Source: a virus. From it: DNA of 39,456 nt. Made by a program: the position numbers and the translations under genes. Of this stretch, positions 1-37,006 are shown piece after piece; within the stretch, counting starts at the first letter, position 1, and every line of letters starts with the position of its first letter. The notes below the pieces were generated by a model. It worked only from the letters and a program-made list of their open reading frames with translations, did not search any database and had not been told where the DNA came from. The DNA is taken from the UHGV virus genome UHGV-0205415; one strand, 5' to 3'.

Positions 1-59
1 TGACGTAGTTAAGTTGTTTGAGTTTGATACATTCGAAAGCCCAGCAAAGGAGGCAACCA

Positions 60-740
60 GTGAGCAAGATTGATTATCAAAAGCTTCGTGAAATCGCTGA
101 AAAAACAAAAATTGCTGGTGAAGCACCTGTAATGCCCTTCGATCAGCGAATTAATGCGCTTAACGATTTTATGAAGCACTTTTCGCCAGATATCGCGCTG
201 GCACTACTGGATGAACGGGAAAGAAACCAGCAATACATCAAAAGCCGCGACCAGGAGAACGAGGAAATTGCGCTAACGGTAGGGAAGCTGCGTGTTGAGC
301 TGGAAGCAGCAAAAAAGCGCATAGCAGAACTGGAAGCCGAACCTGTAAGCCAAGCTTACAACTTGGCAGAATTAATCGAAGGCATGGAAGTTTCCATTGA
401 TGTAAGCACTTGTGATGCTGATTTAGGTAATCGCTATTTCGGCACCGTCACCGAGGCGTTAGAACTTGATACTGCCAAGAATGGTCACATCCTCCTGGTT
501 CAGGACGCAGAGCCAAACTTCGATGTAAATGGCAACTCTCCGGTAACTCCGGATGCCTGGATAAGCTGTAGTGAGCGAATGCCGAACGACGCGCAGTGGT
601 GCGTAGTTGACGCCGAAGGCGGGTATTACGTGCAATGCTGGTCTGAAGGTCAAGGATGGCTTGGAGATGACATCAGCCTACGTGATTGCGATGTAATCAG
701 ATGGATGCCGCTACCAGAGCCGCCGCAGGAGATGAAGTGA
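60..740 (+). CDS. Ead/Ea22-like early protein with C-terminal DUF551-like motif (WMPLPEPP)
   Basis: ORF 18..740; GTG at 60 preceded by AAGGAGG; coiled-coil N-terminus and C-terminal motif typical of lambdoid Ea22/Ead proteins (recalled). Confidence 0.55.
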   Translation: MSKIDYQKLREIAEKTKIAGEAPVMPFDQRINALNDFMKHFSPDIALALLDERERNQQYIKSRDQENEEIALTVGKLRVELEAAKKRIAELEAEPVSQAYNLAELIEGMEVSIDVSTCDADLGNRYFGTVTEALELDTAKNGHILLVQDAEPNFDVNGNSPVTPDAWISCSERMPNDAQWCVVDAEGGYYVQCWSEGQGWLGDDISLRDCDVIRWMPLPEPPQEMK

Positions 741-1024
741 TGGACTCCTTCGCGAAATATACGATTATTGACTGGATGGCATCCCTTCAGGTTTTGCTCA
801 TCTGGTTTTATATGGCTTACAGGAGTGGACAGTGGATTGTCAGTGTAGCATGTGGCAAGGGATGGCGTTGGTGGAACCGAAAGAATAAAAAAGCACTAGC
901 CTTGGATTCGTTTTACGAAGCATTCAATCTTAACAGCCTTCAGCCTGGTTCTGTCATTGTAGTCACCACTCAAAGCGGCATGACGATACAAATTCACAAG
1001 CCAAAGGAGGAAGGTCGTGGCTAA
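740..1024 (+). CDS. hypothetical protein
   Basis: ATG at 740 overlaps upstream stop (TGATG); track ORF 686..1024 trimmed to this start. Confidence 0.4.
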   Translation: MDSFAKYTIIDWMASLQVLLIWFYMAYRSGQWIVSVACGKGWRWWNRKNKKALALDSFYEAFNLNSLQPGSVIVVTTQSGMTIQIHKPKEEGRG

Positions 1025-1301
1025 CCTGCAACTTGCCGTCAAAGGTGAATACTTCGATGCAATGATTCGCGGAGAGAAAACGGAAGAGTATCGCTTGTGT
1101 AATGACTACTGGAATAAGCGAATTATGTTCCGGGAGTATGACCGCCTGATTATCACAAAGGGATATCCGAAGCGCGACGATTCCAGCCGTAGAATTGATG
1201 TTCCGTATGACGGATATGAAATCAAGACAATCACACATCCGCACTTCGGCGATAAACCGGTTAAGGTATACGCGATAAAGGTAAATATCGGCACTGAATA
1301 A
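1017..1301 (+). CDS. ASCH/PUA-like domain protein (tentative)
   Basis: GTG start preceded by AAGGAGG; small protein resembling phage ASCH-domain proteins (recalled, weak). Confidence 0.45.
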   Translation: MANLQLAVKGEYFDAMIRGEKTEEYRLCNDYWNKRIMFREYDRLIITKGYPKRDDSSRRIDVPYDGYEIKTITHPHFGDKPVKVYAIKVNIGTE

Positions 1302-1305
1302 CAAT

Positions 1306-1362
1306 CCTCGCACTCGCGGGGATTTCTTTTATCTGAACTCGCTACGGCGGGTTTTGTTTTTT
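1306..1362 (+). terminator. tandem intrinsic terminator candidates
   Basis: CCTCGC-actc-GCGGGG hairpin then ATTTCTTTT; second CTCGC-tacg-GCGGG hairpin then TTTTGTTTTTT. Confidence 0.45.
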
Positions 1363-1372
1363 GGAGATGATT

Positions 1373-1672
1373 ATGGCCTGTTCAACATTCAACCCTCTAA
1401 CATTACAGAAATACCAGCCAGACCCTGAAGATTTATGCTCACTGTGTGGCGGAAATCATGGTAAAGCCGCCATGATCGAATGTAAGGACAAAATCCACAT
1501 TTGCCTTAATTGCGTTGATGTCCTCGTTGATATCAAAAATGAGAGAGAAGATAAAAAGCGTAGCGAGGCTGTTCGCGCCTTAGATTCATGGATGCGAGAT
1601 GGGTATAGTGCTGCGCAAATTTATGACTTAGCCATTTCAAAAGGCGAAATACCAGGTGTGCGAATCGAATAA
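1373..1672 (+). CDS. hypothetical protein with Cys-x2-Cys pairs (possible zinc ribbon)
   Basis: ORF 1361..1672; ATG at 1373 six nt after GGAG; CSLCGG...CLNC motif. Confidence 0.45.
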   Translation: MACSTFNPLTLQKYQPDPEDLCSLCGGNHGKAAMIECKDKIHICLNCVDVLVDIKNEREDKKRSEAVRALDSWMRDGYSAAQIYDLAISKGEIPGVRIE

Positions 1673-1707
1673 GAAGCGCACTCAAGCATCTTTTGGAGAA
1701 ATCACAA

Positions 1708-1875
1708 ATGCACTTCCGAGTCACAGGTGAATGGAATGGAGAGCCATTCAACAGAGTTATCGAAGCCGAGAACATCAGCGACTGCTATGACCACTGGATG
1801 CTGTGGGCGCAGATAGCACATGCAGACGTAACCAATATTCGAATTGAAGAACTGAAAGAACACCAAGCCGCCTGA
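1708..1875 (+). CDS. hypothetical small protein
   Basis: ORF 1693..1875; internal ATG at 1708 after GGAG. Confidence 0.35.
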   Translation: MHFRVTGEWNGEPFNRVIEAENISDCYDHWMLWAQIAHADVTNIRIEELKEHQAA

Positions 1876-1901
1876 TGGCGGTTTTTTATTGGAGACAAGA
1901 A

Positions 1902-2246
1902 ATGTCAGATTTGGCTATGAAGGTTTTGAAATGGCAATCGACAGGCGATGTCGGCATCAGTAGCGCAACTCTTGCCTCAATCGCATGTGGACTGAAAAAG
2001 AATATCTATGGTCATCACTTCGGCGCTCCACATGACGCAGCCGATTTCCGGCGATGCGTTGCACTTGTTGAGCAGATTCCAGAAATCAGAGATTCATTCG
2101 GCAAGGTTGCAAAGCGCGTTCCGGCATTCAAAGGAATCCTCAACGAATGGGATTCACTCGTTGCTCTGTTGAAGTCTGAAATGAAGATACACGGAAACAA
2201 AGCACCAGAGACTTACAGAAGAATTAGCGAGTTACGCAAGGACTAA
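1902..2246 (+). CDS. hypothetical protein
   Basis: ORF 1875..2246; ATG at 1902 after GGAG; CCGCC-tgat-GGCGG plus T7 hairpin at 1868..1888 just upstream. Confidence 0.4.
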   Translation: MSDLAMKVLKWQSTGDVGISSATLASIACGLKKNIYGHHFGAPHDAADFRRCVALVEQIPEIRDSFGKVAKRVPAFKGILNEWDSLVALLKSEMKIHGNKAPETYRRISELRKD

Positions 2247-2250
2247 CCAC

Positions 2251-2328
2251 AGCCTCACACTCGATGAGGCCTGTTCATTTCTCAAGATATCCAGACCTGC
2301 CATTGCCGCATCAATGCGGTTTTTTTAT
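2251..2328 (+). terminator. intrinsic terminator candidates downstream of the ea-region cassette
   Basis: GCCTCA-cactcga-TGAGGC hairpin at 2251..2270; CCGCA-tcaa-TGCGG followed by TTTTTTTAT at 2306..2328. Confidence 0.5.
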
Positions 2329-2371
2329 TGCCTGATTTGCAGGTTCGATTCCCTATTCGGAGATAGCACTC

Positions 2372-2572
2372 ATGCAACACGAACTACAACCTGATTCACT
2401 GGTTGATTTGAAATTCATCATGGCTGATACTGGCTTCGGTAAAACCTTCATCTACGACCGGATTAAGTCCGGCGACCTGCCAAAAGCCAAAGTTATCCAC
2501 GGGCGAGCAAGATGGTTATATCGTGACCATTGTGAATTCAAAAATAAGCTCTTAAGCCGCGCCAATGGGTAA
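2372..2572 (+). CDS. xis: AlpA-family excisionase/transcriptional regulator
   Basis: 66-aa HTH protein immediately upstream of integrase on same strand; resembles AlpA/Xis family (recalled). Confidence 0.6.
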   Translation: MQHELQPDSLVDLKFIMADTGFGKTFIYDRIKSGDLPKAKVIHGRARWLYRDHCEFKNKLLSRANG

Positions 2573-2821
2573 AATAGCGGGTAAAATATTTCTTACATCT
2601 AAAAAACATCATTCCAATCAATCCCCTGCCGCGCCAAGTAGATGTCTGCAGGGGACACCATTTATCAGTTCGCTCCCATCCGTACTAGTCCGCAAAATCC
2701 CCTGCATATCAAGCCTTCCATAGATTCACAGTTCGTAATGGTTCGCGTCAGATCGTTGACAGCCGCACACCATGACGGGTAAAAAGTGGATAAAATAATT
2801 TTACCCACCGGATTTTTACCC

Positions 2822-3979
2822 ATGCTCACCGTTAAGCAGATTGAAGCAGCAAAGCCGAAAGAAAAACCATACCGCCTTCTCGATGGTAATGGCCTGTACC
2901 TTTATGTTCCTGTATCCGGGAAAAAGGTATGGCAGCTTCGCTACAAGATTGACGGTAAGGAAAAAATACTGACCGTCGGAAAATATCCGCTTATGACTTT
3001 GCAGGAGGCAAGGGATAAAGCATGGACCGCGAGGAAAGACATCTCGGTTGGCATCGATCCGGTAAAAGCGAAAAAGGCTTCGTCTAATAACAATTCCTTT
3101 AGCGCCATTTACAAGGAATGGTACGAGCACAAGAAGCAAGTATGGTCAGTAGGGTATGCGACTGAACTTGCCAAAATGTTTGATGACGACATTTTACCCA
3201 TCATCGGCGGCCTTGAGATTCAGGATATTGAGCCGATGCAACTGCTGGAAGTAATCCGCAGATTTGAAGATCGCGGTGCAATGGAGCGAGCCAACAAAGC
3301 CCGCAGAAGATGCGGCGAGGTTTTCCGTTACGCTATTGTCACCGGAAGGGCTAAATATAACCCAGCACCTGACCTTGCTGACGCCATGAAAGGATACCGC
3401 AAGAAGAACTTCCCGTTTCTTCCAGCAGACCAGATCCCTGCATTCAACAAAGCACTGGCAACATTTTCAGGAAGCATCGTATCGCTCATTGCGACCAAAG
3501 TTTTACGCTACACAGCCCTAAGAACGAAAGAGCTTCGTTCCATGCAATGGAAGAACGTCGATTTTGAAAACAGGATTATCACTATCGACGCCAGTGTGAT
3601 GAAGGGCCGCAAGATTCATGTTGTTCCTATGTCAGACCAGGTGGTTGAACTTCTCACTACGCTAAGCTCCATCACTAAACCAGTATCAGAGTTTGTTTTT
3701 GCCGGGCGCAACGATAAGAAGAAGCCAATCTGCGAGAACGCGGTATTGCTTGTGATCAAACAAATCGGCTATGAGGGTCTGGAAAGCGGTCACGGATTCA
3801 GGCATGAATTCAGCACGATTATGAACGAGCACGAATGGCCTGCCGACGCCATTGAAGTGCAACTGGCACATGCCAACGGCGGTTCTGTGCGCGGGATTTA
3901 CAACCATGCTCAGTATCTCGATAAGCGCAGAGAAATGATGCAGTGGTGGGCGGACTGGCTTGATGAGAAGGTGGAGTGA
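2822..3979 (+). CDS. int: tyrosine site-specific integrase (Arm-binding N-terminal domain type); alternative GTG start at 2786
   Basis: MLTVKQIEAAKPKEKPYRL N-terminus, C-terminal HxxR...Y catalytic region typical of phage integrases. Confidence 0.9.
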   Translation: MLTVKQIEAAKPKEKPYRLLDGNGLYLYVPVSGKKVWQLRYKIDGKEKILTVGKYPLMTLQEARDKAWTARKDISVGIDPVKAKKASSNNNSFSAIYKEWYEHKKQVWSVGYATELAKMFDDDILPIIGGLEIQDIEPMQLLEVIRRFEDRGAMERANKARRRCGEVFRYAIVTGRAKYNPAPDLADAMKGYRKKNFPFLPADQIPAFNKALATFSGSIVSLIATKVLRYTALRTKELRSMQWKNVDFENRIITIDASVMKGRKIHVVPMSDQVVELLTTLSSITKPVSEFVFAGRNDKKKPICENAVLLVIKQIGYEGLESGHGFRHEFSTIMNEHEWPADAIEVQLAHANGGSVRGIYNHAQYLDKRREMMQWWADWLDEKVE

Positions 3980-4003
3980 ACCACCTTAACCACTATCGAA
4001 GAG

Positions 4004-4037
4004 CACAAAGCATTGCAATCAAGTGCAAAGCTTTGTG
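4004..4037. other. 14-bp-arm inverted repeat (one mismatch) with 6-nt spacer between convergent int and tailspike genes; candidate attP core or bidirectional terminator
   Basis: CACAAAGCATTGCA-atcaag-TGCAAAGCTTTGTG read directly from sequence. Confidence 0.3.
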
Positions 4038-4059
4038 TCTAACACTTATTTAAACAACA

Positions 4060-6057
4060 TTATATTGCAGATATTATAAAACATAATAATTCTTCATATC
4101 TTATTCCATATCGCTCACCCCCTTCTATAGATATTCTGCGTTCTCCAGTATCATATTCAATTAATTTTTCATCACCGGATTCTTCATCAAAAATTATCTT
4201 TTTAGCAATTACTGGTTCGTATTCAGTTTCCCATTTATCATAGCAAAAAAGACCATAGTCGTTTGCATCAAGCCCTTCTTCAGCAAATGCTTTATATACA
4301 TCTTGGGCAATAATGCCAAAATGTAATCTAGCATTTTCTCCTTTTTCAATTACTGAATCTATAAATCTAAAACAACAAACCAAACCCTTTATTTTATATG
4401 CAACACGTCTCTCTGCATCAGTAATCGGTCTTTTATCAGTCTTAACTCGACCATCCGATGTGTTAATCGTTGAAGTGCCAGCAAATATTGTATTCCACCT
4501 TCTGGATGCTGAACCGCAATTTCTAGCGTTATCTGTTGCTGGTTGTACCGACGCATCAAAACGAGCATAATTATTCTCATCAGAAACAGGTCCCATCAAT
4601 CCACTCAAAAAAGGGAGCCCGCTCTGATTAGCAATTATTAATTGGTTGTCACCTGAAGAAATTGCCGAACCGGCATTGGTTCCGATAAATATATTACCTG
4701 TTCCAGAGCTTAACGATCTACCAGATCTATATCCAAGCATTACATTGTTACTTGCCGAACCAATAGAATTAAGTGAGTCGGCTCCTACTGCGACATTATT
4801 CATCCCTGTAGATGTGCCTGTATAAGGGTTATCTATAGAAGAAATCCCTCTTCCTGATCCGCTACCAATATATGTATTGTTATCTCCATTTGTAATCTCC
4901 CTTCCGGATGCATTGCCTATAAATGTGTTATTATTTAGAATGTTATAAGACAACCTTTTGCCTGATTGGTCTGTAACAATTCCAGCTCGCATTCCAGCCG
5001 CTCGACCTATTGCAACATTACCACTACCAGTATGAAGTTGTTGTAATGCACTTGATCCTACTGCAACATTAAAATTTCCTTCTTTATTTTCATTTAGGGC
5101 ATCGCGCCCAATTCCAATTATGTTACTAGCTGTGGTTGATTTTTTGCACGCATTCACACCAATTGCTACAATCTCAGTGCCAGTGCATGGCGATGTATCT
5201 GTGAGATCGTCTTGAAGGGTATCACCTGATAATACACCTGTCCCAATTGCTGTAATGTTATTGCCCGTGCTAATGTTTCTTCCTGCACTTGGTCCAATCG
5301 CAACAACTTGCCCGGATATATCATTTCCATTATATATCTTGCCAGCATCAAAACCAAAAAAAACATTTCCAATTGTCTGAGCAGGATTTGCAAATGGAAT
5401 AGGTTCGTCTCCTTTACTTTGTATTATTTTACCAGGGCCATAAAATTTTCCATTAATATAGTTCTCAATTAAATAAGTACCTTGTGGAACATAAACACCG
5501 TCAGGTGAAACTGAAGATGCATAGGAAAATATATGTGTTGCGTCAATATTGCCATTAACAATGTCGCTAACATCTTCATGTTTTACAAAATCAAGAATAC
5601 TAATATTCTCTGCATTTTTATCATGCTGTGTTCGTTTTGTAGAATTAATTAAAGGTTGTTTTACTGTGATTAATGAATCACCAAGCCCATCATCTGAACT
5701 TAAAAGTTCTTGCCTTAACTGATCCGGGTCATACTTCAGCACATTAGGAAAATAAAACTGCTGCGCACCATATGCATCATAAACAGCCATAGAATGGCCT
5801 TGCACAGTTACGAACTTGGCAATCTGTCCGTTATATACCGGATATCCGGCAGCGTTAATGATTATTGGTTGCGAAACAGGAATGTGAGAACCGTCTTCGT
5901 TCTCTACATAAACCTGAATCTGGTTTTCAGGATTTACCGGGTCAGTGTCAATTTTACCGATATAAATTTTGCCATTGGCTACGGCTTTAAAAGAACGCGC
6001 CATAGTGAAGAGTTGCGAAGGCATACTCACTACAACATTGGCTGTAATGTCTGTCAT
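4060..6057 (-). CDS. tailspike protein: P22 gp9-like head-binding N-terminus, repeat-rich central domain, C-terminal S74-type intramolecular chaperone domain
   Basis: N-terminus [11 protein letters not shown]...[11 protein letters not shown]...VTVQGHSMA...LKYDPDQ matches P22 tailspike head-binding domain (recalled); C-terminus resembles autoproteolytic chaperone of endosialidase/tail fibers. Confidence 0.85.
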
Positions 6058-29016: not shown

Positions 29017-29297
29017 TCCTTCACTTTGATTCCAGCGGCGCGGATGGATTCATCGATATCGTCACGGTCGTACACAGCAATAGCATCACTGACAAACCAT
29101 ACAGGCAACTCAATTTCAATAGCTGCTCGCGATGCCTGCCACGTTTGCCAGTGGCCTTGAACATCGTCCATCACGTATTGACCACCAATATCACCACTGC
29201 CAATTTCATGGTGATTTTCAGGGTAACGGATAAGGTCTGATGATTCGCCTCCACGTCGCAACCAACTTTCTTCAAACTGCTTTCTTGATTCGTCCAT
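29013..29297 (-). CDS. hypothetical acidic protein
   Basis: ORF track; overlaps neighbours by 4 nt. Confidence 0.4.
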   Translation of the reverse strand: MDESRKQFEESWLRRGGESSDLIRYPENHHEIGSGDIGGQYVMDDVQGHWQTWQASRAAIEIELPVWFVSDAIAVYDRDDIDESIRAAGIKVKE

Positions 29298-33812: not shown

Positions 33813-34529
33813 ATGGAAAATAAAAAATCACTGACGACAGAACAGCTGGAAGACGCTAAGCGGCTTAAGGCTTTGTATGAGTCAAAAAAGAAAGAATTGG
33901 GAATAACCCAATACTCAATCGCTGATGAACTGGGTATCACCCAAGGAGCGGTAGGGCATTATCTTAATGGCAGAAATGCGCTAAACGTTGAGGTTGCATC
34001 TGGTTTTGCACGATTGTTGCAAGTCTCAATTGCTGATTTTAGCCAGTCAATTGCTGCCAAGGTTGCAGAACAGGCAGAAAGCCTTAAGAGCGATGCCAAC
34101 GTAAGGTATGCAGGGGAATACAGAGCAGGAAAGAGGTATCCGGTGTTAAGCAGTATCCAGGCTGGCTCGTGGTGTGAAGCATGCGAACCATACACCATTA
34201 AAGACATAGATGTTTGGCTTGAGTCTGACGCGCATATTCAAGGTAATGCGTTCTGGCTTAAAGTGGAAGGTGATTCAATGACGGCACCGGTTGGGTTAAG
34301 CATTCCAGAGGGAACATTCGTTCTTTTCGATACCGGAAGGGAGGCGATCAACGGCAGCTTGGTCATAGCAAAACTTTCTGACTCTAACGAAGCAACATTC
34401 AAGAAGCTGATAATCGACGGTGGAAATAAATACCTCAAGGGACTTAATCCTGCATGGCCTCTCGTGCCAATCAATGGAAACTGCAAGATTATAGGCGTTG
34501 CAATTGAGACAAAACTCAGACTGGTTTGA
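33813..34529 (+). CDS. cI: CI repressor (HTH plus S24 LexA-like autocleavage domain)
   Basis: LTTEQLEDAKRLKALYE N-terminus and C-terminal FWLKVEGDSM...FKKL resemble lambda CI. Confidence 0.9.
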   Translation: MENKKSLTTEQLEDAKRLKALYESKKKELGITQYSIADELGITQGAVGHYLNGRNALNVEVASGFARLLQVSIADFSQSIAAKVAEQAESLKSDANVRYAGEYRAGKRYPVLSSIQAGSWCEACEPYTIKDIDVWLESDAHIQGNAFWLKVEGDSMTAPVGLSIPEGTFVLFDTGREAINGSLVIAKLSDSNEATFKKLIIDGGNKYLKGLNPAWPLVPINGNCKIIGVAIETKLRLV

Positions 34530-35002: not shown

Positions 35003-35089
35003 AATATCCTTTGTATTCATCTGTTTATCATTATTCCATCAAAAATAAATACCCTGGGTATTTACACAATAAAATACCTACAGTATTCT
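35003..35089 (+). promoter_or_regulatory. OL region and pL: operators AATATCCTTTGTATT, AATACCCTGGGTATT, AATACCTACAGTATT; pL -35 TTTACA, -10 TATTCT
   Basis: Same operator family as OR; promoter hexamers 17 nt apart overlapping operators. Confidence 0.55.
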
Positions 35090-35134
35090 TTAGCCATCAG
35101 CAGGACGCTGGTAGCCAAACGGAACAGATTGGCA

Positions 35135-35176
35135 GGCTCTTTAACATTGATGGGATTGTCCCGCCGAAATGCGGGA
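35135..35176 (+). promoter_or_regulatory. nutL: boxA-like GGCTCTTTAACA and boxB hairpin TCCCGC-cgaaat-GCGGGA
   Basis: Identical boxB sequence to nutR; located between pL and N. Confidence 0.5.
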
Positions 35177-35283
35177 ACCAAAGAGTAGTTGGCTTTGGGG
35201 TGATGTGAAGTGCAGCTGCACGACGGCAACCGGAAGATAAGCACCCGGCGCGTCACCGCCAAAGTCAATCATCGGAGGTCAGC

Positions 35284-35583
35284 ATGACAGTAGTCATTAC
35301 ATATCTGGCTGACGATAACGCCAGAAATCGCCGCAGAGCACGCAGACAGGATCAACGTGAACAGGCAATGCAAGAACAGCGACTGGCGCGAAAAATTGCG
35401 CTAAAGCTCTCTGGTTGCGTCAGAGCAGACAAAGCAGCATCACTCGGAAGCCTTCGCTGCAAGAAGACAGAAGAAGTCGAGAGTAAACAGAATCGTATTT
35501 ACTACCGCAAGCCACGCAGTGAAATGGGTGTGACTTGTGTTGGTCGCCAGAAAATGAAATTAGGCAGCAAACCACTTATTTGA
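35284..35583 (+). CDS. N: N-like antiterminator
   Basis: Arg-rich motif NARNRRRARRQ near N-terminus, C-terminus GVTCVGRQKMKLGSKPLI like lambda N; GGAGG RBS. Confidence 0.75.
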   Translation: MTVVITYLADDNARNRRRARRQDQREQAMQEQRLARKIALKLSGCVRADKAASLGSLRCKKTEEVESKQNRIYYRKPRSEMGVTCVGRQKMKLGSKPLI

Positions 35584-35594
35584 GAGGAATTAAT

Positions 35595-36218
35595 ATGTCA
35601 TCAATCCGCTTAACTACGAGAATGAAAGAGGAAATCGCTCGTAACGCTTTAATTAAGTCTGGGGTTTTCACTGAACTTGAAGAAGTAACAAAGTTAAAGA
35701 ACCAGCTTGCACTTGACGCCAGAGTTATTGCGTTTGGCGGTAAAAAGAAAACTGAGGAAGTGGATCAGTTATCATCCAAGTTGGTAGCTATAAGTGAAGA
35801 ACTTGAAAAGATGGGATGTTCATTTTACTCATACGATGTTCGTTCTACTTCAATTTATCTTACTGTATCTGGCAGAAGGGTTGGATGGCATTCATATGGG
35901 AAAGACGGCAACGGCGAAGATATATTGCTCCCTACTCCGACAAAAGATAAATGCATGTTTGACGCAGAGCACGAAATAACAAAAAGGTTTGATGAAATCT
36001 GCGCATTACAACAAAAATTTGAAGCCAAGAAAAAGGATATCGAATCAAATGTATGGGCTGCTTTAAACTCAGTCACAACAGTTAAGCGACTCATTGAAGT
36101 TTGGCCTGAAAGCAAAGAATTGCTACCAAAAGAAGCAGATAAAGCAAGTGCAGCACTTCCTGCTTTACGGGTAGAAGATTTGAATAAGATGATTGGACTT
36201 CCTTCCGAGGCCGCGTAG
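35595..36218 (+). CDS. hypothetical 207-aa protein directly downstream of N
   Basis: ORF 35535..36218; ATG at 35595 after GAGAGGA; no family recognised. Confidence 0.5.
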   Translation: MSSIRLTTRMKEEIARNALIKSGVFTELEEVTKLKNQLALDARVIAFGGKKKTEEVDQLSSKLVAISEELEKMGCSFYSYDVRSTSIYLTVSGRRVGWHSYGKDGNGEDILLPTPTKDKCMFDAEHEITKRFDEICALQQKFEAKKKDIESNVWAALNSVTTVKRLIEVWPESKELLPKEADKASAALPALRVEDLNKMIGLPSEAA

Positions 36219-36714: not shown

Positions 36715-37006
36715 TGATAAGCGTGAAATATCGCAAATAATCGCAAGTTTTACTGATGAAGATTACGAGCGAATCAACAGTGAAGTTGATCGTCTCTGCA
36801 AACGTTGCGACCCAATAAGCGAAATGCTTCGCTCATATAAACCAGATGAACACACTAAGGACGCTATCGACTGGCTGGAAGATGATGACTGTAACTATCA
36901 GGAAAAAGCCGCTGAATGGTTCTGGGATGCAATAACCGAAAGAGTTAAGGCTGAATATGCCTTCGCAATATTCAAACGCAGACACATTTATGGAGAAGCA
37001 GCATGA
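36695..37006 (+). CDS. hypothetical protein
   Basis: AGGAGA RBS 5 nt before ATG; ORF track. Confidence 0.45.
   Translation: MMILTLNDKREISQIIASFTDEDYERINSEVDRLCKRCDPISEMLRSYKPDEHTKDAIDWLEDDDCNYQEKAAEWFWDAITERVKAEYAFAIFKRRHIYGEAA

Follow-up and report, generated by a model that had tools for sequence, protein, structure and literature searches.

Three small accessory genes and shared predicted terminators before xis and int in a P22-type lambdoid phage genome

Introduction

What sort of unit is formed by the three small genes that lie between hairpins, shortly before the excisionase and integrase genes, at positions 1373 to 2246 of the viral genome UHGV-0205415? The whole stretch analysed (the window, 39,456 bp; all coordinates are window positions) is, as judged from sequence, an HK620/Sf6-like (P22-type) lambdoid phage; it is close to HK620 and Sf6 (Lederbergvirus), HF4s and Kapi1. 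The original prediction, made from the letters of the sequence, described the three genes as one accessory cassette of the early-left region, bracketed by terminators as morons typically are, with products of no recognizable family. We consider it likely that the locus is something more ordinary: a mosaic end of the pL operon, in which three shuffled accessory modules, N-dependent in their expression, are separated by terminators that double as recombination joints.

Three genes with relatives in well-known phages

The three genes at issue are the following:
1373 to 1672, + strand: gene 1, 99 amino acids, full-length match to phrog_3680 (E 1.8e-69)
1708 to 1875, + strand: gene 2, 55 amino acids, full-length match to phrog_676 (E 5.5e-40)
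1902 to 2246, + strand: gene 3, 114 amino acids, full-length match to phrog_1229 (E 2.4e-51)

These reading frames had been proposed earlier and they stand: all are open, each has a GGAG ribosome site 7 to 9 nt 5' of its ATG, each has its match in a PHROG family of unknown function, and all are under purifying selection, with ratios of nonsynonymous to synonymous substitution (dN/dS) of 0 to 0.16 and synonymous sites that are saturated against the distant homologues. Homologues of genes 1 to 3 with 50 to 60% identity are found in Enterobacter, Klebsiella, Citrobacter and Cronobacter. The GC content is 0.43 for gene 1, 0.49 for gene 2 and 0.47 for gene 3; the window as a whole has 0.469 and the pL operon 0.444, and neither GC nor GC at third codon positions (GC3) is anomalous in any of the three.

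The view that none of the proteins has a recognizable family does not hold. By sequence comparison, gene 2 is orf55 of lambda (lambdap35) and ORF55 of 434, gene 3 is ORF114 of 434 (HK022p30), and gene 1 belongs to the family of Sf6 gp19 (gene 19), 933W L0063 and Sakai H0073. The product of gene 2 has 96% identity to lambda Orf55 (lambda 29118-29285) over 54 aligned residues, and dN/dS for this gene is 0.13 to 0.16. Gene 1 of Sf6 and of 933W/Sakai has 97% identity to the window, and its amino acid sequence is 100% identical to that of Sakai H0073 despite a proportion of synonymous differences (pS) of 0.13.

The genes assort independently

Do the three genes travel together? A local blastn comparison of window positions 1 to 2900 with twelve fetched phages gave these combinations, tL4 and t'I being hairpin-containing islands that flank the genes:
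lambda: tL4 island and orf55, with neither gene 1 nor gene 3
434, HK022 and Gally: tL4, orf55 and ORF114
Kapi1: tL4, gene 1 and orf55
Sf6 and 933W/Sakai: gene 1 and only the last ~50 nt of orf55
WGPS8 and c341: tL4 and ORF114
P22 and HK620: only the t'I island, 64 to 81 nt

A single three-gene cassette is not what these phages contain, and phage records show gene 1 alone, gene 2 alone, gene 3 alone, genes 1 and 2, and genes 2 and 3. Of 50,697 phage records, 51 contain gene 1, 58 contain the 5' part of orf55 and 62 contain gene 3; the islands are commoner, tL4 (1297-1371) with 293 records, 160 of them at a coverage of at least 80%, and t'I (1824-1895) with 169. No phage record contains the whole three-gene block at a coverage of at least 80%. 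The whole block does occur in 41 of 5,426 complete E. coli genomes, joined to a lambda-type xis/int at torS or to a TorI-type xis, and some part of it in 2,770 of the 5,426. In Kapi1 and in H19J, orf55 comes next after gene 1. Distant homologues in Enterobacter, Klebsiella and Citrobacter prophages occupy the same place, just before xis/int; in a Citrobacter prophage a gene 3 homologue is the last gene before xis/int, as in the window, and in Enterobacter an unrelated 54-amino-acid gene follows the gene 1 homologue.

What the original prediction said of an early-left, accessory character is upheld, since each gene is found in only 51 to 62 of the phage records and is missing from close relatives, and the check that it suggested, presence or absence across related phages, finds the genes variably present; none has a demonstrated function. 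Every gene combination seen, together with the greater abundance of the islands than of the genes, argues that these are three separate single-gene accessory modules placed in line with the operon, with the predicted terminators as shared punctuation and not as private insulators.

Hairpins shared by many phages

The elements between and around the genes are as follows:
1303 to 1334, + strand: hairpin 1 of the tL4 pair, stem AAUCCUCGC/GCGGGGAUU, loop ACUC, U-rich tail
1335 to 1362, + strand: hairpin 2 of the tL4 pair, stem GAACUCGC/GCGGGUUU followed by UGUUUUUU, running straight into the GGAG of gene 1
1866 to 1890, + strand: t'I copy 1, GCCGCC-UGAU-GGCGG followed by U6AUU, with the orf55 stop codon in the loop and the GGAG of gene 3 directly 3'
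2248 to 2301, + strand: non-coding relic, 54 bp long, in which codons ~4-20 (HSLTLDEACxFLKISRP) from the 5' end of a P22-type (HTH_17) xis survive with no start codon
2305 to 2327, + strand: t'I copy 2, GCCGCA-UCAA-UGCGG followed by U7, whose homologue is annotated t'-I in the 434 record
2328 to 2365, + strand: pI-like promoter region that opens the integration module; it has a TTGC-N5-TTGC activator site of the cII/C1 type (2328-2340) directly next to the T-tract of t'I copy 2

A terminator scan over positions 1 to 4200 returned 11 sites, against 4.2 +/- 1.9 in shuffled sequences, and five of them, all on the + strand, lie within 1300-2330 (1303-1324, 1335-1354, 1865-1884, 2252-2270 and 2305-2320). 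In RNA folding, the pair at 1296-1372 has a z value of -5.0, the stretch 1855-1901 one of -3.1 and the stretch 2244-2335 one of only -1.7; no hairpin was found between genes 1 and 2. The canonical anatomy of a GC-rich stem and a U-tract, which predicts an intrinsic terminator, is present in 1303-1334, 1335-1362, 1866-1890 and 2305-2327. Hairpin 1 begins 2 nt past the stop codon of the upstream ASCH-like gene and aligns with the annotated t-L4 of 434 (M60848) and tL4 of HK022 (X51962). The tandem terminators proposed upstream of the genes, at 1306-1362, are supported by the scan, by the folding and by annotation in other phages.

The sequence of t'I copy 1 is 100% conserved in lambda, P22, Sf6, HK620, Sakai, Kapi1 and 434, and the P22 record L06296 labels the identical sequence t'I through its identity to lambda 29106-29165. 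A hairpin with a run of seven T had been placed between the second and third genes; the hairpin is there, but its tail is T6-A-TT and the stop codon of gene 2 falls within its loop. The two t'I copies (1867-1887 and 2305-2325) form a direct repeat, D1, with 81% identity, and a compensatory change from C-G to A-U at the loop-closing pair keeps the stem. Of the terminators proposed downstream at 2251-2328, the one at 2305-2327 is convincing; the 2252-2270 palindrome is not counted because it lies inside the xis relic and has a poor U-tract (2252-2280, tail CUGUUCAUUU). Aligned with xis starts from P22 and from prophages of Enterobacter and Citrobacter, the relic is 90 to 96% identical in DNA, where the neighbouring genes reach only ~70%. 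The end of gene 3 stands in place of the relic's start codon, the reading frame is dead, and the relic accompanies the ORF114 module in 434, HK022 and Gally.

The segment 2328-2365, a predicted promoter, is homologous to the HK620 feature 'promoter: phage integration', to the HK620 'cII protein' binding site and to the pI annotation of Sf6. In lambda and 434, the same type of t'I hairpin abuts TTGCGTGTAATTGC, and the usual unit, as read from these sequences, is t'I, pI, xis, int. These hairpins are not private to a cassette; they are elements that such operons have in common, and many more phages have them than have the genes. A search of Rfam drew a blank, both for the whole window at the gathering threshold and for 1200-2900 with the limit relaxed to E <= 1.

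A comparable linker is seen outside E. coli phages: in an Enterobacter prophage (L019, 4328-4366), a t'I-like hairpin, CCGCCGCAATGGCGG, with TTTTTTATTGGAGA, stands after a distant (54%) gene 1 homologue and before the unrelated 54-amino-acid gene, which points to conservation across genera of the terminator and ribosome-site linker although the flanking genes have diverged or differ.

Where the modules are joined

Homology to other phages breaks off in the window at 1295-1299, 1367-1371, 1674, 1691, 1824-1828, 1884-1891, 2282-2301 and 2305/2324. These breakpoints sit at the edges of the hairpins and of the motif TTTTTT(A)TTGGAG that precedes each gene (repeat D6); at 1367-1371, for example, homology with lambda, 434, Gally, WGPS8 and c341 stops. 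Kapi1 is 98% identical to the window over 1297-1891 and 96% over 2305-2662, with a single t'I and no gene 3. The second t'I copy is chimeric. Its stem and loop, GCCGCATCAATGCGG, are of the 434/HK022/Gally type, and its T-tract and right flank, TTTTTTTATTGCCTGATTTGC, are of the HK620/Sf6/Kapi1 type; homology to 434, HK022 and Gally stops at 2324-2325, and homology to Sf6, HK620 and Kapi1 already begins at 2305. The overlap of both homologies within t'I copy 2 would place the right-hand crossover inside a hairpin of ~20 nt and the left-hand one within orf55/t'I.

Conserved boundary sequences at module junctions have been described for lambdoid phages, as cited in PMC3029335. The likeness to the window lies in a short conserved sequence between non-homologous modules, with the breakpoints located there, and the records of HK620 and Sf6 themselves annotate 'bsq' features, bsq2 of Sf6 covering the t'I/pI segment. 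The difference is that the linkers in the window are identifiable elements, namely intrinsic terminators, as predicted, together with a ribosome site or a cII site, and that one junction falls within a ~20-nt hairpin. The placement of the crossovers is what the conserved-boundary-sequence model of lambdoid mosaicism would predict.

Close counterparts of the locus are known. In 434 and HK022 (M60848 and X51962, the 434 record dating from 1991), the order t-L4, ORF55, ORF114, t'-I, xis, int is found on the same strand as in the window, with the tL4 hairpins, orf55, ORF114, the xis relic and the second t'I all present and 94 to 95% DNA identity over window positions 1691-2324. They differ in having no gene 1, so that tL4 runs directly into orf55, and in having an xis-int of the lambda/HK022 type and not of the HkaC/IntS type. 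Lambda has tL4 and t'I islands 94 to 97% identical to those of the window, in the same place at the end of the pL operon before pI/xis; it differs in lacking genes 1 and 3 and in having ea8.5 upstream of the tL4 island. Kapi1, Sf6 and HK620 have the same backbone and integration module as the window, HK620 without genes 1 and 3. The feature is not new, either as a type or in its particulars, its open reading frames and terminators having stood in GenBank records for decades.

The end of the early-left operon

Where in the genome do these modules sit? The surrounding genes are:
33813 to 34529, + strand: cI-like repressor gene
35284 to 35583, + strand: N-like antiterminator gene, match to phrog_271 'anti-termination protein N-like' (E 3.8e-36)
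at 37003, + strand: RecT gene, with further early genes on the same strand
60 to 740, + strand: Ea22-like gene
between the Ea22-like and ASCH-like genes, + strand: DUF4752 gene
1017 to 1301, + strand: ASCH-like gene, 94 amino acids, phrog_625, directly upstream of the tL4 pair
2372 to 2572, + strand: HkaC/TorI-type excisionase gene, first gene of the integration module, match to phrog_66 excisionase, homologue of HK620 hkaC and Sf6 gene 18, named TorI by PGAP
2786 to 3979, + strand: int of the IntS type

Genes 1 to 3, tightly packed and co-oriented with the pL operon, share the + strand with the N gene, and are preceded by the recombination genes and followed by xis/int; the tailspike gene is on the strand opposite to that of xis/int. 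An apparatus for N-type antitermination, an N gene and a nutL-like site, is recognizable in the window: a boxA-like CTCTTTAACA and a hairpin lie ~130 nt upstream of the N-like gene. By this arrangement genes 1 to 3 are the xis-proximal end of the early-left, N-antiterminated pL operon, the region called 'exo-xis' in lambda and 'ea' in P22. The exo-xis region is treated in the literature as transcribed from pL, with orf55 named as the last lambda gene in it.

How would such an end of the operon work, and how could it have arisen? Expression of genes 1 to 3 would probably require both relief of repression at pL and an RNA polymerase that the N-like protein has modified at nutL. By analogy with lambda, the N-modified polymerase would read through the tL4 pair and both t'I copies, and unmodified polymerase would stop at tL4 or t'I, which would make genes 1 to 3 N-dependent delayed-early genes. 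The t'I hairpin, abutting the cII-type activator site of pI, would block read-through into pI-xis-int and leave int under the control of pI. The terminators with the adjoining TTTTTT(A)TTGGAG ribosome-site motif are also short islands that lambdoid phages keep even when otherwise unrelated, and the modules could be shuffled by recombination there. The present arrangement may have arisen when a backbone of the Kapi1 type (gene 1, orf55, t'I, pI, hkaC, intS) gained the ORF114 module from a phage of the 434/HK022/Gally type, with crossovers in orf55/t'I and inside the second t'I hairpin that would have left t'I duplicated around gene 3.

Several points weigh against this account. Termination at tL4 and t'I, and N-dependent read-through of them, are predictions from sequence, and the names themselves rest on GenBank annotations that call the function inferred; among the papers searched we found none that tests either terminator and none naming tL4 together with lambda and xis. 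A sigma-70 consensus scan could miss weak or activator-dependent promoters, and internal promoters have been predicted elsewhere in exo-xis regions in published work. The conservation of the last part of orf55 (1824-1865) is not obviously explained by termination or by recombination alone.

What might the products do?

The products of genes 1 to 3 are probably small host-modulating factors. The product of gene 1 begins with an N-terminal domain resembling the ClpX-type C4 zinc-binding domain; after this come a helix rich in charged residues, a variable stretch and, at the C-terminus, the conserved GKIPxIRI(D/E). The Cys-x2-Cys pairs that had suggested a zinc ribbon are real, C22/C25 and C44/C47 being invariant in the family (C3 and C37 vary), and their nearest similarity, which is below threshold, is to the ClpX-type C4 domain. 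The spacing, C-x2-C-x18-C-x2-C, aligns with C14, C17, C36 and C39 of ClpX, and gene 1 shares with the N-terminal zinc-binding domain of ClpX (PF06689; PDB 1OVX and 2DS5-8) both this spacing and the motif CSxCG...IC..CVDL. Unlike ClpX, it has no AAA+ domain, and the C-terminal half specific to its family has no ClpX counterpart.

Pfam PF06689 matches gene 1 with an E value of 0.014 (15.7 bits, under the gathering cut-off of 27). Of the 22 family members 18 match it weakly, with a lowest E value of 1.3e-3, and none of them reaches the cut-off. Aligned by hhalign with residues 1-65 of E. coli ClpX, the gene 1 family gave a probability of 92.6% and a score of 38.6, compared with 14.2 +/- 3.9 (maximum 27.1) in 200 shuffles with the Cys residues fixed; the comparison scores were 24.0 for TraR, 16.9 for DksA and 13.4 for Ea8.5. 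Searches of the PDB with single sequences gave weak ClpX matches only, and the family profile had no match among PDB sequences. NCBIfam returned weak ClpX matches for gene 1 and none for genes 2 and 3. The AlphaFold2 model of gene 1 has a predicted local distance difference test score (pLDDT) of ~54 over the zinc region, which is mis-modelled as helices, and is too poor for a fold search. A relationship to Ea8.5, likewise a zinc protein, was considered and rejected, with an hhalign probability of 0.5%; Ea8.5 lies upstream of tL4 and gene 1 downstream of it.

Treble-clef dimers of the ClpX type also occur in the small anti-sigma factor CsfB, which the gene 1 product resembles in being a small, probably dimeric, predicted zinc module. 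The domain therefore points to dimerization or partner binding, not necessarily of ClpX, and a treble-clef zinc module like the ClpX N-domain, serving one of these roles, is the only lead from sequence to which we commit.

For gene 2, a published model gives Orf55 a fold of three strands and one helix like that of T7 Gp2, with a proposal, described by its authors as speculative, that it modulates RNA polymerase (PMC8614690). Residues W9, N43, R45 and E47 of gene 2 agree with those discussed in that work. At the sequence level, a relationship to T7 Gp2 was tried and is not significant: hhalign, with a Gp2 query sequence entered by hand, gave a probability of 0.4% and a score of 10.8, which 36 of 200 shuffles reached. 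The last ~40 nt of orf55, 5' of t'I (1824-1865), are 98 to 100% conserved in ~110 phage records that have no other part of orf55, among them P22, Sf6, HK620 and 933W.

The product of gene 3 is predicted with confidence to be an all-alpha domain of seven helices (pLDDT 93.5). The model resembles only uncharacterized phage proteins, one of them from a Clavibacter phage, and no solved structure, and the family profile has no match among PDB sequences. A profile search collected 2,839 clusters at 50% identity (E <= 1e-3), and among 96 members scanned none has a Pfam domain covering the gene 3 domain. Residues W11, S20, P43, D45, D48, R51, C52 and W83 are invariant in the family. Among 35 longer members there is one informative fusion, to a CCA-adding-type nucleotidyltransferase, which we judge too thin to build on; the enzyme part of this protein (P0305, 558 amino acids) includes an HD domain, and the gene 3 domain follows it as the C-terminal part. 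Another member (P0201) has two tandem copies of the domain. As a long shot, to which we return below, gene 3 would found a very large family of phage proteins (more than 2,800 clusters), unrepresented in Pfam, with a fold that no solved structure shows and an invariant signature, S-S/P-x-D-x-x-D-x-x-R-C/W, and it could be an enzyme or a specific inhibitor.

Are the products then factors for counter-defence or host takeover, gene 1 acting as a decoy N-domain that modulates ClpXP, Orf55 as a modulator of RNA polymerase, and gene 3 as an enzyme or inhibitor directed against a host defence? It is a possibility worth holding, though a doubtful one. Early, dispensable and highly mobile small proteins under purifying selection would suit it, as would the resemblance of gene 1 to ClpX's zinc-binding domain, the Gp2-like fold modelled for Orf55 and the invariant polar residues of gene 3 with the single nucleotidyltransferase fusion. 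It has to contend with the ClpX match that stays under the Pfam threshold, with the poor model of that domain, and with an Orf55 that has no sequence similarity to T7 Gp2. PADLOC gave zero matches for genes 1 to 3 and for the upstream ASCH-like gene, and looking in the literature for studies of exo-xis genes in counter-defence turned up nothing specific.

A bolder proposal is a long shot: that gene 1 is a phage-made mimic of the ClpX N-domain, pairing with it or competing for its substrates or adaptors and so reprogramming ClpXP early in infection, or, as a second and independent option, that gene 3 founds a very large family of novel fold, enzyme or inhibitor. Were the first true, the mimic might stabilize the phage replication initiator or other ClpXP-labile phage proteins.

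Other readings of the locus

Could termination be incidental, and the hairpin islands have been kept mainly for another role, in processing or stabilizing the transcript, as a site for a regulatory RNA or protein in the control of pI-xis-int, or purely as recombination linkers? The t'I island reaches the ~40 nt into orf55 that are retained almost unchanged in phages without that gene; t'I always abuts a ribosome site or the cII site of pI; and the hairpin itself is a recombination junction. Yet the hairpins have the canonical GC stem and U-tract, the stem is kept by a compensatory pair change between the t'I copies, no structure is predicted in the 40 nt upstream of t'I (z = +0.7), and Rfam has no match. 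We think this reading unlikely.

A moron in the sense of Juhala and Hendrix is extra DNA that separates genes which are neighbours in related phages; it has a terminator downstream, a promoter of its own and a deviant composition. At this locus a true moron, or lysogenic-conversion cassette, would be an autonomous unit that serves the host, being transcribed while the prophage is repressed, with terminators of its own as insulation. Each gene is indeed extra DNA with respect to some close relative: Kapi1 has no gene 3, 434, HK022 and Gally have no gene 1, and lambda has neither. Terminators do flank the block, and the internal promoters predicted elsewhere in exo-xis regions could be thought to favour a promoter here too. 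Hairpins follow genes 2 and 3, however, and not gene 1, which has no terminator of its own, and the same hairpins are found in phages without the genes. On the + strand within 1300-2340, a simple sigma-70 consensus scan, which weak or activator-dependent promoters could escape, found no promoter-like site. Add to this the unremarkable GC and GC3, and the tight, co-oriented packing in the pL operon downstream of the N-like gene, and a moron in the strict sense becomes very improbable.

That the three proteins are interacting partners of one system, with the block selected as a unit, is hardly credible, for although the complete block recurs with different flanks in those 41 E. coli genomes and gene 1 precedes orf55 in Kapi1 and H19J, the idea is largely refuted by the independent assortment of the genes in phage records, by the lack of a phage record with the triple at a coverage of at least 80%, and by the unrelated gene that the gene 1 homologue precedes in Enterobacter.

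Significance and neighbouring features

The segment is a textbook mosaic of the lambdoid early-left operon, and its value is illustrative. It allows recombination to be located with a precision of ~20 nt, the joints falling inside conserved terminators; a duplicated, chimeric t'I and an xis fossil mark one of them, and joints so placed support the linker model of module exchange in this region. The proteins, carried by about half of complete E. coli genomes, Shiga-toxin prophages among them, are uncharacterized, and two offer leads: the ClpX-like zinc module of gene 1 and, for gene 3, the huge family that has neither a Pfam model nor a solved structural relative.

Some neighbouring features may be recorded. 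The ASCH-like gene (1017-1301) has a weak match to the ASCH domain over its first 23 residues (E 0.06); its homologues are named 'ASCH domain-containing protein' by PGAP, and in HF4s the annotation is putative RNA-binding protein. Its GTG start overlaps the stop codon of the DUF4752 gene. Read by eye, 35050-35200 contains an operator-like palindrome, ATACCCTGGGTAT, the boxA-like sequence already mentioned and a CCCGC-CGAAAU-GCGGG hairpin, and together these look like candidates for pL/oL and nutL. Also in the pL operon, a gene at 35535-36218 on the + strand starts inside or just after the N-like gene and matches the Nmad5 domain ('nucleotide modification associated domain 5') over its full length (E 6e-71). 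Finally, the open reading frame that runs to the end of the window stops with TGA at positions 1-3, the 39456/1 junction being in frame, and from this the 39,456-bp window looks like a complete, circularly permuted phage genome.

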